NCBI GenBank assembly: GCA_036383395.1
Contig: DASVOI010000014.1
Location: 329-64,328 of the forward strand
Direction of reading: 5' to 3'
DNA: 64,000 nt
Origin: Candidatus Saccharimonadales bacterium
Lineage (GTDB): Bacteria > Patescibacteriota > Saccharimonadia > Saccharimonadales > UBA4665
Shown: positions 4,101 to 48,046 of the stretch, piece after piece
Layout of the letters: every line of letters starts with the position of its first letter
How positions within the stretch are numbered: position 1 is the first letter of the stretch
Made by a program: the position numbers and the translations under genes
The notes under the pieces: model-generated
Databases searched by the model: none
What the model was told of the DNA's origin: nothing
What the model saw: the letters and a program-made list of their open reading frames with translations, nothing else

Positions 4101-4888
4101 TGTTCATGTTCGCGTCAGAATCACCAAAAGTAAGCGTCGCGCCCGAGACCCTGTTTCACCTTGGGCCGTTTGCCGTCACCAACTCGCAAATGCTTGGTGT
4201 TGTTGGCGTCACCCTTATTTTGGTGCTGCTGTTCTGGACCAAGCGGGCGCTCTTAAAGGGCTCCCGTTCTCGTTTAATGCACATGGTGATGTGGGCGTTT
4301 GAGAGCCTGTACGACACCACCATCGAAGTCATTGGCGACAAGGCCGTGGCCCGCAAGATTTTGCCCCTGGCCGTTACGCTGCTCTTTTTCTTCCTGGTGA
4401 ACAACTGGCTGGGCATCTTCCCGTTTGTGGGTTCGGTGACGTATAACGGCACGCCGCTGTTCCGCGGTGCCGCCGCCGACATGAACACCACCTTTGCGCT
4501 GGCGATTATTTCTATGGTGACGGCGCAGGCTTGGGCCATCAAGAAGCATGGCTTCTTGGGCAACGTCCGCCGCTATCTCATCAGCCCGTTTAAGGACCCG
4601 CTGCACAGCTTCGAGGGCATCCTCGAAATCGTCGCCGAGTTCTCGCGCCTGCTTGCCCTCTCCCTTCGTATTTTTGGTAACGTGTTCGGCGGCGAAGTGC
4701 TGCTGAGCGTTATCGCCTACCTGAGCAGCTACGCGGCTGCCATCTCGCTGCCCCTTTTCTATGTCCTCGAGCTTTTTGTTGGCGCCGTACAGGCGTATGT
4801 GTTCTTCATGTTGACGGTTGCATTCATTAGTTTGGGTCTGCCGAACGGTGAAGATGCGCATGCAGACGCGGCCGAGGATAGTCATTAA
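4100..4888 (+). CDS. atpB: ATP synthase Fo subunit a
   Basis: LSLRIFGN with the essential Arg, ADMNTTFALA, and AVQAYVFFMLT. Confidence 0.97.
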   Translation: MFMFASESPKVSVAPETLFHLGPFAVTNSQMLGVVGVTLILVLLFWTKRALLKGSRSRLMHMVMWAFESLYDTTIEVIGDKAVARKILPLAVTLLFFFLVNNWLGIFPFVGSVTYNGTPLFRGAAADMNTTFALAIISMVTAQAWAIKKHGFLGNVRRYLISPFKDPLHSFEGILEIVAEFSRLLALSLRIFGNVFGGEVLLSVIAYLSSYAAAISLPLFYVLELFVGAVQAYVFFMLTVAFISLGLPNGEDAHADAAEDSH

Positions 4889-4919
4889 AAATAGTAGTAA
4901 ATAAGGAGTTATAAATAAC

Positions 4920-5141
4920 ATGGACATTACCCCACTCGCATTTGGTCTGACCTACGCGATTGCTGCCGCAGGTTGTGGCATTGGCTTGGGCTTGGTTGGT
5001 CTTGGCGCCGTACAGGCTGCTGGTCGCAACCCGGAAGCTTTGGGCAAAATCCGTACGCTGATGATTTTGGCCATGTCCTTCGTGGACGCCTTGGCTATCA
5101 TCGGTTTGGTGGTTGCCTTGATCGTGAAGTTCTTGAAGTAA
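4920..5141 (+). CDS. atpE: ATP synthase Fo subunit c (H+-type, Asp carboxylate)
   Basis: GxGxG helix, GRNPE loop and FVDALAII; no Q/E/S Na+ signature. Confidence 0.97.
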   Translation: MDITPLAFGLTYAIAAAGCGIGLGLVGLGAVQAAGRNPEALGKIRTLMILAMSFVDALAIIGLVVALIVKFLK

Positions 5142-11192: not shown

Positions 11193-11617
11193 ATTTGGAA
11201 CTAGTCACGTTAGATGGTGCGAAGTTTAAGGCTGAGGCCTACTCGGTCATCTTGCCAACGGCTGATGGCGAAATCACCGTATTGCCTGGCCATGAGCCAC
11301 TGCTCGCGCAGCTGGTGCCCGGTGTCATTACTATTCGACGCAGCCGCGGCGAGGCTGACTACCACCTGGAGCATTTTGCTACCTACGGGGGTGTGCTCGA
11401 AATCAGCAGCAAGGGCGTGCGTATTTTGGTAGACGAAGCCACTCACGGTGACGAAATCAACGAAGCCGAAGCCAAGAAAGCCCACGAAGCCGCCGTTGCC
11501 CTGCGCAAAGACGCGAAGACGCAAGTGGAGCTGGACAAGGCCCAGGGTTTGGTGGACCGCCACGCGGTACGCCTGCAAGTCGCCGACCTGCGCCGCCGCC
11601 ACGCCCGCCGCAGCTAG
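11189..11617 (+). CDS. atpC: ATP synthase F1 subunit epsilon
   Basis: LPTADGEITVLPGHEPL, GGVLEI and a C-terminal helical hairpin. Confidence 0.96.
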   Translation: MNLELVTLDGAKFKAEAYSVILPTADGEITVLPGHEPLLAQLVPGVITIRRSRGEADYHLEHFATYGGVLEISSKGVRILVDEATHGDEINEAEAKKAHEAAVALRKDAKTQVELDKAQGLVDRHAVRLQVADLRRRHARRS

Positions 11618-11971
11618 TTAGCTGTCGGAGGCGTGCGGCTCGGGCAGCTCGGCTGCCCCGTTTTGCTGCGGTTTCATTTGCTGGACGGTATCGGCCAGCA
11701 GCTCGGAGGCGCCTTGGGCCGCTAGCAACTCCTGCAAGTGCTCGATATCTTCAAAGTGGGCCACTGCCAGCAGCGCTAAGGTAAAACCGTCGAAGGCCGC
11801 CTCTTGGTCCTGTTCCTCTGGAAAATGCGTTTGCAAGAACGGCCGCGCCGCGCGCGCAATGCCGTGGAATCGCTTGTTAATTGCAATCCATCCTTGCTCA
11901 TGCAGTTGTTCGCGGCTCATATGTTTGAGCCACAAGGCTACCGTTGCTGCTGAGGGGTCTGGTTGTTTCAT
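11618..11971 (-). CDS. Hypothetical protein
   Basis: 117-aa ORF with SD GAGGA; its stop abuts the atpC stop. Confidence 0.6.
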   Translation of the reverse strand: MKQPDPSAATVALWLKHMSREQLHEQGWIAINKRFHGIARAARPFLQTHFPEEQDQEAAFDGFTLALLAVAHFEDIEHLQELLAAQGASELLADTVQQMKPQQNGAAELPEPHASDS

Positions 11972-12020
11972 AACGCGTTTCCTCCTACTTTTAGTTTAAC
12001 AACACCACAGATGGTGTTGA

Positions 12021-12036
12021 TGTGTTTTTTGTCACA
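12021..12036. promoter_or_regulatory. Crp/CAP-type box TGTGT-N6-TCACA
   Basis: 9/10 match to TGTGA-N6-TCACA in an AT-rich divergent intergenic region. Confidence 0.65.
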
Positions 12037-12053
12037 CGATATTTGAACCTTAT

Positions 12054-12082
12054 TTGCGAAAGCACCCCTGCGGGCGTATAGT
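12054..12082 (+). promoter_or_regulatory. sigma70 promoter of the carbonic-anhydrase-like gene
   Basis: TTGCGA-17 nt-TATAGT; SD AGGAGG precedes the ATG at 12125. Confidence 0.6.
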
Positions 12083-12124
12083 CGAAAACACAGAAGTAAT
12101 CTCTTATAAGAGGAGGCTTGGTGT

Positions 12125-13081
12125 ATGCAAAAACACCTTGATGACCAGTCGCAAGCCGATTTGGACGAAGTGGTAACCCGGAGCGGCCTTGTGGCGCACC
12201 GTTTGACCGACGACATGTCGTGGGGCGTGGGCGATATCCGCCCTCAGCCGGACCGCGCCAGCCCGGAGGACCAACGGGAGCTGGTGCACGCCGTGATGGA
12301 GCACCTCAAGCCAGTTACGCAGGGCGAAGCCGCTTACTGTACCTGCACCGACGGCCGTCTGCCGATTCGCCTCGTCAGCGGCGAGAGACCCCCGGTGCGC
12401 GAGCAGTTGGTGGGCGCCGACATTGTGAGCGCCTTTTATGTGGCCGAGGCCCTGGGCAAACGCTTTTATGCTGACGCGACAGCGCCGGCAGCTGTGCGCG
12501 TGCTCGATGTCGCCCATTTTTTGCACGAAAACGGCTGGCTGCCCAGCACGCACATGAACTGCGGTGCGGCCAGCGGCTTTTTGGAGATTGTACAGAACAG
12601 CATTCGCTTTAGCCGCAGCCCTAAATACCGCACCCGCCTCAGGATGTTGCTGCCGGAAGGCGTGTACGATCCCGAACTGCAAGAGGACATCATCGCCGAT
12701 ATTCAGGAGCGACTGGACGGCGGCGCGTACAAGGACCTGACCGCCGACACCTTTGTTAGCGCCGTGCGCCAAGTGAGCGGCGACCACGCCATCGTCGAGA
12801 TAAAAGACGATGGCCGCGGCGTAAATGGCCACGTCGAGGAAATGGTGATGCGCATCTTGGTGGATGGCAAGGCGCTATCCACTGTTGATCTGGCCAAAGC
12901 CACCCACGGCCGCCAGGTGTTTGGTGTGAATGACCTCCGTATGGCGCGGCTCGCCCGCTTGTTCGCCCGCGGCAACGACCAGGACTACCGCACCGCGCGT
13001 ATCGCCCTCGAAGATTTTGCCAGCGCCGGCCACGGCACCTTAGCCAAGAACCTGCCCACATACGTCATCACCAACTCGTAA
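12125..13081 (+). CDS. Carbonic anhydrase-like metalloprotein (beta/zeta, CDCA-like)
   Basis: CTDGR (Cys-x-Asp-x-Arg) and HMNCGA (His-x-x-Cys) metal-ligand motifs. Confidence 0.7.
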   Translation: MQKHLDDQSQADLDEVVTRSGLVAHRLTDDMSWGVGDIRPQPDRASPEDQRELVHAVMEHLKPVTQGEAAYCTCTDGRLPIRLVSGERPPVREQLVGADIVSAFYVAEALGKRFYADATAPAAVRVLDVAHFLHENGWLPSTHMNCGAASGFLEIVQNSIRFSRSPKYRTRLRMLLPEGVYDPELQEDIIADIQERLDGGAYKDLTADTFVSAVRQVSGDHAIVEIKDDGRGVNGHVEEMVMRILVDGKALSTVDLAKATHGRQVFGVNDLRMARLARLFARGNDQDYRTARIALEDFASAGHGTLAKNLPTYVITNS

Positions 13082-13144
13082 TGTTTACAAACCCTCCGCT
13101 TTGGTGTTACGCTTGAGGTAATAAGGTAATCTTACGGAGGGAAC

Positions 13145-13810
13145 ATGCTATCAAGAAATAAAATCGCCATGCTCGTGGCTGAGTTTTTGGGTGCCGGTGT
13201 TTTGACCGCTGTGTTTTTGGCAGTCAGCAAGTCCAACATTGGCATTCCGTACTTTGTGGCATTGGGCGTGGGCCTGACCCTCGCGGCCCTGGTCACCATG
13301 TTGGGGCCAGTCTCTGGCGCGCACCTCAACCCGGCAATTACGCTTGGTCTGTGGAGCGCTCGCCGCATTAAGACGTTGCCGGCGCTGACGTACATCGTGG
13401 CCCAGCTGCTCGGCGCCATCTGCGCTTACCTGCTCTACACCTACTTCGTAAACAGCCACTGGCAAAACAGCGGCAAATTCGAAAGCCGCGTGCTGGTCGC
13501 CGAGGCAACTGGCGCCTTTGTGTTCGCCTTGGGTTGGGCGGCAACTGTCTACCAACGGCTAGAAGGCGCCCGTGCGGCCTTTACGATTGGTGCTGCGCTG
13601 ACAATCGGTGCGCTGGTCGCGTCGGTTGGCTCTGGCGGCATTCTGAACCCGGCGGTCGCCCTGGGCGCTCGCAGCTGGGTCTGGGGAACCTACGTGCTTG
13701 GCCCGGTCCTTGGTGCCATTATCGGTTTCAATCTGTATGCGTTACTGTTTGCGCCGGCTGACGCGCTCGTGTCGCCGCTCGACAAGCCAAAGGCTGCCAA
13801 GAAGAAGTAA
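13145..13810 (+). CDS. Aquaporin / MIP family channel
   Basis: SGAHLNPAITL and ILNPAVAL NPA boxes, AEFLG and AEATG; six TM helices. Confidence 0.95.
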   Translation: MLSRNKIAMLVAEFLGAGVLTAVFLAVSKSNIGIPYFVALGVGLTLAALVTMLGPVSGAHLNPAITLGLWSARRIKTLPALTYIVAQLLGAICAYLLYTYFVNSHWQNSGKFESRVLVAEATGAFVFALGWAATVYQRLEGARAAFTIGAALTIGALVASVGSGGILNPAVALGARSWVWGTYVLGPVLGAIIGFNLYALLFAPADALVSPLDKPKAAKKK

Positions 13811-13832
13811 GGCGTTCCTTACGGCGAATTTG

Positions 13833-13862
13833 CACCGGCTCCACCAGCGAGCCGGTGTTTTT
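13833..13862 (+). terminator. Intrinsic terminator after the aquaporin gene
   Basis: CACCGGCTC-7 nt-GAGCCGGTG followed by T5. Confidence 0.85.
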
Positions 13863-13981
13863 CCACAAGATCAGCTAGAAAGTGATACAAAAAGCGAAAT
13901 TGTTTACGTTTTTTGCTTGCAATCTGTTTGTTAACGCGGTATCTTGCTTCTAGAACTTATTTTTCGTGGGGTGATTCGACC

Positions 13982-28718: not shown

Positions 28719-28734
28719 TGTGAGAAATATCACA
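28719..28734. promoter_or_regulatory. Perfect Crp/CAP box TGTGA-GAAATA-TCACA
   Basis: 10/10 consensus with ATTT flank, between divergent extended -10 promoters (TGC-TATAAT minus 28698-28706; TGG-TATACT plus 28758-28766). Confidence 0.75.
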
Positions 28735-47265: not shown

Positions 47266-47377
47266 CGGCCCGGGAGCGTTTCAGATTCATTTAACATCGC
47301 TGCATTAGGGTAGGATTGTCCGCCGGGACAGTTAAGCGGTGTACAATAAAGAGGGTCACTTTCCTTTTGGTAGCGTT

Positions 47378-48046
47378 ATGCGCGATATTATTACCTACCT
47401 GACACCACATTCGACCAAACGCGTTTTTAAACGACATGCTATTTTGCTATATCAAGGCGAGGTGCCGCGTACGGCGTACGTTGTACTAAAAGGCGTGGTC
47501 AAAGTGTATAGCATCAACGCGGCCGGCGAGGAGCAGATTGCCACTTTCGAAACGCCGGGTGATATATTTCCGGTGCCGTGGATTTTCCATAAAGCCACTC
47601 ATACGCTGTACTACTGCGAGGCGCTCAGCGATTGCGAGGTGCTTGCACTGTCGCGCGAGGAGCTGCTGTTGCAGCTCAATACCACTCCCGAATTGCAGCA
47701 ATCGGTTTTGAATTATTTTGTAAATCGCTACACCGGCCTGCTGATGCGCATCACCGCGCTGGAGCAGTCGCGGGCACGAGAGAAAATCATGTTCACGCTC
47801 TACTATCTGTTGTTCCGCTATGGACGCGAAGTCAAACCCGGCATGTATGTGGTCAGTATTAAGCTCACGCACAGCGTTATTGCCGGCTTGGTGGGGCTAA
47901 CGCGCGAAACCACCACCAACGAGCTCACCAAACTCAAGGCCGAAAAAGTGTTGCGCTACAGCACGCACCAATACGCCATCGACAAGAGCAAACTCGAGCG
48001 GCTGCTGGGCGAAGACAGCTTCGACAATATCGAACTGGCGCGGTAA
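47378..48046 (+). CDS. Crp/Fnr-family transcriptional regulator
   Basis: cNMP-binding beta-roll (LKGVVKVY..NAAGEEQI...PGDIFP) and HTH LTHSVIAGLVGLTRETTT. Confidence 0.93.
   Translation: MRDIITYLTPHSTKRVFKRHAILLYQGEVPRTAYVVLKGVVKVYSINAAGEEQIATFETPGDIFPVPWIFHKATHTLYYCEALSDCEVLALSREELLLQLNTTPELQQSVLNYFVNRYTGLLMRITALEQSRAREKIMFTLYYLLFRYGREVKPGMYVVSIKLTHSVIAGLVGLTRETTTNELTKLKAEKVLRYSTHQYAIDKSKLERLLGEDSFDNIELAR

Follow-up and report, generated by a model that had tools for sequence, protein, structure and literature searches.

CRP, FNR and NtcA contact RNA polymerase from about -41.5 at class II promoters, an example being galP1 of Escherichia coli, a CRP-dependent class II promoter of the extended -10 type in which CRP is centred at -41.5. 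The distance from the centre of the site to the -10 hexamer is 29.5 bp in E. coli class II promoters. The NtcA-activated promoters of cyanobacteria carry GTA-N8-TAC at -41.5 and a -10 box, and have no -35. Class I sites are found upstream of a functional -35 at -61.5, -72.5, -82.5 or -92.5, positions that share one face of the helix; in E. coli lacP1 the CRP class I site lies at -61.5, and its centre is 25.5 bp from the start of the -35. It is also known that one CRP site can serve two divergent promoters in E. coli. Outside the enterobacterial cAMP paradigm, Xanthomonas Clp (c-di-GMP), Mycobacterium Crp, and Corynebacterium GlxR are members of the family that work on CRP-like boxes. To our knowledge, very little is known about the control of transcription in CPR bacteria and in Saccharibacteria in particular; a full-text literature search returned no article that deals with Crp/Fnr regulons of Saccharibacteria, and its "CRP" matches referred to the C-reactive protein.

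We have analyzed a stretch of 64,000 nucleotides (the window) from a Saccharimonadales genome (G000; 1.06 Mb in 51 contigs, 58% G+C, an assembly 93% complete). The intergenic region 11972-12124 of the window is common to a 117-aa ORF on the minus strand and a 318-aa ORF on the plus strand, and contains the 16-bp box TGTGTTTTTTGTCACA (plus strand, 12021-12036, centre 12028.5), made up of TGTGT (12021-12025), the spacer TTTTTG (12026-12031), and TCACA (12032-12036). Read on the strand of the 117-aa gene, the same box is TGTGACAAAAAACACA. It agrees with the TGTGA-N6-TCACA dyad at 9 of 10 positions, the sole mismatch being TGTGT for TGTGA, and the orthologous boxes agree with it at 7-9 of 10 positions. 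A preliminary description of this DNA had reported the box together with a TTGCGA-17-TATAGT promoter 25.5 bp away, and all of its coordinates proved to be exact. It had interpreted the pair as a lac-like class I promoter of the 318-aa, carbonic-anhydrase-like gene, under a Crp-family protein encoded in the window and belonging to a real Crp regulon.

Within the window only, TGTG-N8-CACA has 3 matches against 0.9 expected, and 6 of 100 shuffled sequences reach 3, so that this count is not significant and would agree with a chance palindrome. The genome-wide scan for CRP-type sites that the preliminary description had proposed gave a different answer: perfect TGTGA-N6-TCACA occurs 7 times against 0.1-0.4 expected (0.4 under a first-order Markov model; 0.11 from the half-site frequencies, p = 3e-11). 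This motif ranks first in over-representation among all 5-N(2-10)-5 palindromes of G000, and the reversed-pattern control gave 1 match. Copies with one mismatch are about fivefold in excess in intergenic regions (11 against 2.05 expected) and scarce in coding sequence (5 against 14.5 expected). The eight copies of TGTG[AT]-N6-TCACA are all intergenic or at gene starts, beside -10-like hexamers, whereas the three TGTG-N8-CACA matches without the T/A positions are all inside genes. Five sites in G000 share a spacing of 21-23 nt to a -10, and most of 60 relatives show the same excess of the motif over the reversed control. With such a strong genome-wide enrichment, a chance origin of the box is extremely improbable. 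Because of this enrichment and the placement of the sites, we conclude that this reduced genome has a real regulon of the Crp/Fnr type, with roughly 15-20 operons predicted, and that the box is a predicted Crp/Fnr-type operator (12021-12036, on either strand) conserved in soil Saccharimonadales. The genes adjoining the sites include topA and those encoding a GalE-like epimerase, an ATP-grasp ligase, a ferric-reductase-like protein, a pilin-like protein, RNase HII, a KhpA-like protein, a TauE-like protein, a GreA/Rnk-like protein, and a Crp paralog.

Two further palindromes are enriched in G000. TTAAC-N2-GTTAA is the second most enriched one (8 against 0.28 expected), and TCAAC-N6-GTTGA occurs 7 times against 0.85 expected; both are candidate operators of other regulators. 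A perfect TGTGAGAAATATCACA is located at 28719-28734 of the window, 27 nt upstream of TGgTATACT and of a leaderless GalE-like gene (ATG 28774), and it also overlaps, on the opposite strand, the -35 zone that belongs to a TGcTATAAT promoter. Several box-associated genes look leaderless, with the ATG 6-7 nt past the -10 hexamer (window 28774, C25:7954, and C48 about 3408).

The plus-strand promoter, of the sigma-70 type, occupies 12054-12082, where 17 bp separate TTGCGA (12054-12059) from TATAGT (12077-12082). A consensus scan of 11500-13950 returned it as the only sigma-70-like promoter of that interval; a strong ribosome site, AAGAGGAGG, and the start codon (ATG, 12125) come after it. The 318-aa gene (12125-13081) encodes a protein whose AlphaFold2 model (pLDDT 94) has significant fold matches in the PDB only to the CDCA1 repeats 3uk8 and 3boh (E 4e-5 to 1e-4), i.e., to a zeta-carbonic-anhydrase (CDCA) fold. 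The protein itself has no Pfam match, and a 345-aa homolog has a weak match to Pfam CDCA. Since the residues C74-x-D76-x-R78 and H143-x-x-C146-G are invariant in 41 homologs and the fold matches point to CDCA1, the designation "carbonic-anhydrase-like" holds at the fold level of the predicted structure. Downstream, in the same transcription unit on the plus strand, there is a MIP/aquaporin gene (13145-13810; Pfam MIP, E 1.6e-26). The synteny of the locus is constant, consisting of atpD-atpC, the convergent 117-aa gene, the box, and the divergent carbonic-anhydrase-like/aquaporin unit. Orthologs of the 318-aa gene are found in only 6 of 22 congeners.

As in E. coli lacP1, the box centre in G000 is 25.5 bp from the start of the -35, and it falls at -60.5 if the -10 hexamer spans -12 to -7, in agreement with class I phasing in this genome. 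This geometry, on which the preliminary description relied, is thus present in G000; the orthologs do not keep it. The implied plus-strand centres of nine orthologous pairs are -60.5, -64.5, -70.5, -56.5, -62.5, -73.5, -62.5, -72.5, and -57.5. Some of these positions are near class I ones (-62.5 in G006, -73.5 in G011, -72.5 in the DASPHS genome), and 4-5 of the 9 pairs are within 1 bp of -61.5 or -72.5, where about 2.6 would be expected; by a hand binomial, p is about 0.08-0.25 depending on the -10 chosen in G013, and the phasing is not significant. In loci with a paralog or the aquaporin on the divergent side, the box centre is found between -88 and -145. The box faces the aquaporin in G021 and G007, whose promoter is about 105-145 bp away; in G008 the box, at -88.5, is opposite a gene for a distant C-x-D-G-R paralog, and in G019 the opposite gene, where the aquaporin follows, is a decayed 318-aa remnant (82-aa N-terminal).

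The orthologs of the 318-aa gene are also preceded by near-consensus -35/-10 pairs at a variable distance from the box, and such good hexamers on the plus strand are typical of activator-independent promoters. In addition, one ortholog in an unrelated context, upstream of a sigma-factor gene (L028), has TTTACA-17-TATAAT and no box. Given the drifting distance, the boxless ortholog, and the near-consensus promoters, the lac-like spacing in G000 is most simply read as a coincidence of that drift. The alternative of a class I site of the lac type, centred at about -60.5 or -61.5, which would activate the carbonic-anhydrase-like gene, mainly or alongside a class II role, has in its favor that a box separates the two genes wherever the divergent pair is kept, that the box always lies between the orphan 117-aa gene and the carbonic-anhydrase-like/aquaporin unit, as well as the E. 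coli precedent of a single site serving both sides. We consider it unlikely nevertheless, in view of the scattered positions and of the ortholog that lacks the box outside the locus, and a weak co-activation of the 318-aa gene by the box is conceivable. The box accompanies the 117-aa gene irrespective of the gene on its other side, and the proposed Crp control of the carbonic-anhydrase-like gene was probably assigned to the wrong promoter.

The 117-aa orphan gene (11618-11971, minus strand) belongs to a family of 54 protein clusters, all of them from Saccharimonadales and none of them named. W14, W28, R34, G37, and P44 are invariant in this family. The protein is predicted to be formed by helices (AlphaFold2, pLDDT 75) with an acidic disordered tail. 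Pfam, NCBIfam, and PDB profiles gave no match to it, and neither did Foldseek when queried with its AlphaFold2 model. We collected 18 loci of the family (11 congeners, three further GTDB genomes, and four metagenome contigs from ENA, Logan, and JGI), which are related by descent and are therefore not 18 independent events. The box is present upstream of the 117-aa gene in 18 of 18 family members. Among the 11 congeners, G007, G008, G019, and G021 have no recognisable 318-aa gene and keep the box, and G013 has a tandem second copy of the 117-aa gene with its own box. The box columns are near-invariant over the 18 loci, whereas the 12-nt flank and the spacer are almost information-free, saturated with changes.

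The distance from the box to a -10 hexamer on the strand of the 117-aa gene is also conserved. In G000, an extended -10, TGtTAAACT, is located at 11993-12001 of the minus strand (hexamer TAAACT, 11998-11993), and an AGGAGG ribosome site precedes the ORF; transcription is predicted to start at about 11986, the first base of AGGAGG. The TAnnnT hexamer begins 23 nt after the end of the box in 12 loci, 22 nt in five, and 21 nt in one, which corresponds to 28.5-30.5 bp from centre to hexamer (30.5 bp in G000), and TGn precedes the hexamer (TGnTAnnnT) in 17 of the 18. The order on this strand is TGTGAy-rAAAA-[AG]CACA, a spacer that is not conserved, TGnTAnnnT, and, some 10-20 nt later, GGAGG and the ATG. 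No -35-like hexamer was found among the 18 loci, positions -35 to -30 being ATCAAC in G000 and unconserved, and the consensus scan of 11500-13950 detected no -35/-10 promoter on the minus strand. Placing the hexamer at -12 to -7, which gives an inferred start, the box centre falls at -40.5 to -42.5 in all 18 loci. Because the box and the fixed 21-23 nt spacing to the -10 are found in 18/18 loci, the 117-aa gene is the conserved target of the box, with a class II geometry as judged from these distances. The comparison of orthologous upstream regions, which the preliminary description had suggested as a check, supports its box as a conserved element and assigns it the gene on the opposite strand as conserved partner, the lac spacing being particular to G000.

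The similarity to galP1 is apparent in the distance of about 29.5-30.5 bp by which the dyad precedes a TGn-extended -10, in the lack of a functional -35, and in a box-to-(-10) spacing kept within 1-2 bp. In contrast to galP1, the half nearer the promoter reads [AG]CACA throughout and is accompanied by an A-tract, the regulator is not orthologous to CRP and is unlikely to bind cAMP, and activation is predicted from the sequence. The architecture is also that of the cyanobacterial NtcA promoters, except that the target box is GTG...CAC and not GTA...TAC.

From these data, we propose, with a probability of about 70%, that a Crp/Fnr dimer bound at the box activates the 117-aa gene through a class II, extended -10 promoter, that CrpC (see below) is the likely regulator, and that its effector is probably not cAMP. 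A Crp/Fnr-family dimer would occupy the 16-bp box 12021-12036 and, from about -41.5 or -42.5, would contact RNA polymerase at the extended -10 in the absence of a -35, most likely activating the orphan gene. The divergent carbonic-anhydrase-like and aquaporin operon has its own near-consensus -35/-10 promoter and would benefit from the box secondarily at best, in a lineage-specific way.

The same position could also suit a repressor, since a dimer at about -41.5 might block the access of RNA polymerase to the extended -10 of the 117-aa gene. Extended -10 promoters can fire without a -35 or an activator, and the boxes that precede the crpC genes, variable in position and partly overlapping the promoter, suggest negative autoregulation by a member of this same family. 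Repression, however, needs no spacing fixed within 1 bp over 18 diverged loci, and the combination of a fixed spacing with an absent -35 is a hallmark of class II activation by CRP, FNR, and NtcA, which makes a repressor operator improbable.

Between the box and the minus-strand -10 of G000 there is a perfect 8-bp inverted repeat, CAACACCA-caga-TGGTGTTG (12000-12019). It is kept in no ortholog examined, and it is therefore probably incidental; an Rfam scan of 11500-12600 detected no RNA family. Since a terminator scan lists this hairpin with the tail ATGTGTTTTT, we also considered that hairpin and box T-run might form an intrinsic terminator of the plus strand. We discarded this reading, as improbable as that of a chance palindrome, because the hairpin occurs only in G000, while the box and the T-tract occur in 18 loci, and no plus-strand gene ends there.

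Three loci have a degenerate primary box (TGCGA...CGCA or GCACG), and in these a better second box is found exactly 23 bp further from the 117-aa gene, centre to centre (L006/L042 of G011, L026 of DASRJJ010000025, and L075 of Logan SRR13588989).

G000 encodes four Crp/Fnr paralogs. CrpA is the one encoded in the window (47339-48046, plus strand; the true start is likely the ATG at 47381), and it contains the Pfam domains cNMP_binding and HTH_Crp_2 and the recognition helix RETTTNE. Its best solved relatives are NtcA, which is the closest (5e-13), a Thermus CRP-family protein, and FNR. CrpB (C29:13008-13676; helix RETTTTE) is 63% identical to CrpA, CrpC (C25:7954-8604) has the helix RESVGRE, and CrpD (C48 about 4461-5100, minus strand) has RETVSRL. 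The CRP of E. coli reads TGTGA with R180, E181, and R185 (RETVGR), and the helix RESVGR of CrpC matches this E. coli sequence. The triad R-E-x-x-x-R is complete only in CrpC and CrpD, whereas in CrpA and CrpB an N or a T takes the place of R185. All four paralogs have Glu where NtcA (RVTVTR) has Val. The Crp-family gene with the RET helix that the preliminary description had noticed in the window is thus confirmed (47339/47381-48046).

Of 23 congeners, 22 encode CrpC, with 70-96% identity. In 22 congeners, nearly every crpC gene is preceded by a TG[ACG]GA-N6-TCACA box, 20 to 84 nt from the ATG, in the asymmetric style of the target box, i.e., a weak half, a T-tract, and R-TCACA. Nearly every copy of this promoter also has a GGCAAT-N-TTCGTCACA half-site upstream and a TGAGATAAT leaderless promoter. 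The crpB-type (RETTTT) genes are preceded by TGTrA-N6-kTACA, an NtcA-like GTA-N8-TAC, located about 23 nt before a TACAAT -10 (L015, L017, L019-L023, and G000 C29 about 12900). TGTrA-N6-kTACA may accordingly represent a separate, second class of operators in these genomes. The close paralog type of CrpA has NtcA-like TGTA-N8-TACA boxes before its own gene. A ATTTAACAT-like element also recurs upstream of crpA-type genes. The CrpD-type genes adjoin boxes with a G+C-rich spacer (TGTGAC-SSSS-GTCACA) and a GreA/Rnk-like gene; such boxes are found at C48:3373, C48:4439, and C40:12682 and in the relatives G003, G008, G009, G012, and G021. G006 has the target box and gave no CrpD-type match in a search with CrpA as query.

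Every genome with the locus, and nearly every congener, encodes CrpC-type and CrpA/B-type proteins together, and for this reason presence or absence cannot discriminate between them. A 16-column weight matrix scores the 117-family boxes at 13.0 bits for the CrpC type against 8.3 bits for the CrpA/B type, while a half-site-only matrix, the CrpA/B one being derived from the crpB-type boxes, gives 11.5 bits for CrpA/B and 8.7 bits for CrpC. That the regulator would be the CrpA of the window or CrpB is a tentative possibility, to which the half-site matrix and the conservation of R180 and E181 in both proteins contribute. Against it, the right half shows TAC in 8 of the 9 crpB-type boxes, whereas 17 of the 18 boxes of the 117-aa family show CAC; position 2 of the box is an invariant G in spite of the N or T at the R185 position; RETTTN-type orthologs are found in only 3 of the 11 congeners with the locus that were sampled; and the 16-column matrix favors CrpC. 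CrpC, with an about even chance of being the regulator of the box judging from its helix and its own boxes, would be our first candidate, and a regulator other than CrpC or CrpA/B is unlikely. The attribution of the box to the gene in the window was hence not sustained, this gene being one of four paralogs, lacking the third Arg, and having a close paralog whose boxes are NtcA-like. In the mechanism that we propose, CrpC rather than CrpA would be most likely the protein bound at 12021-12036.

The word "Crp" is used here as a family name. Of the cAMP-contact residues of E. coli CRP (E72, R82, S83), E72 and S83 are replaced in the four paralogs, and R82 is perhaps kept only in CrpC. Adenylate or guanylate cyclase domains (class I, III, IV) were not detected in the 93%-complete assembly of G000 with the profiles PF00211, PF01928, and PF01295, which gave matches in control genomes. 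The four paralogs score at best 30-62 bits against the NCBIfam CRP equivalog, whose cut-off is 266 bits, and none of them reaches any NCBIfam equivalog cut-off. Because the pocket residues are replaced, no cyclase was found, and the scores are below the cut-off, the cAMP sense of the name is doubtful, and the effector is probably not cAMP. The "real Crp regulon" of the preliminary description is therefore maintained as a TGTGA-N6-TCACA regulon and questioned as regards cAMP. The Clp/GlxR-type regulators provide a possible lead, as they combine a CRP-like dyad with signals outside the cAMP paradigm, and G000 encodes a GGDEF protein. Only one GGDEF gene was found in G000 (C4:5640-6014), and it is truncated where its contig stops.

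As a mechanism, the proposed switch is of an ordinary, textbook kind, in a lineage that has been little studied. The locus offers a clean testable promoter, with an operator and an extended -10 at a fixed spacing in 18 loci, in a 1-Mb genome with four candidate regulators and a candidate regulon that includes the topA, GalE-like, pilin-like, and KhpA-like genes. It is a long shot, but conceivable, that a genus-wide CrpC devoid of a cAMP pocket governs a regulon of about 20 operons in response to c-di-GMP, a metabolite, or a host cue, and that the product of the orphan gene, its most rigidly conserved activated target, located between the ATP-synthase operon and the carbonic-anhydrase-like/aquaporin unit, might be a new regulator linking the energy, pH, or CO2 state to that unit.
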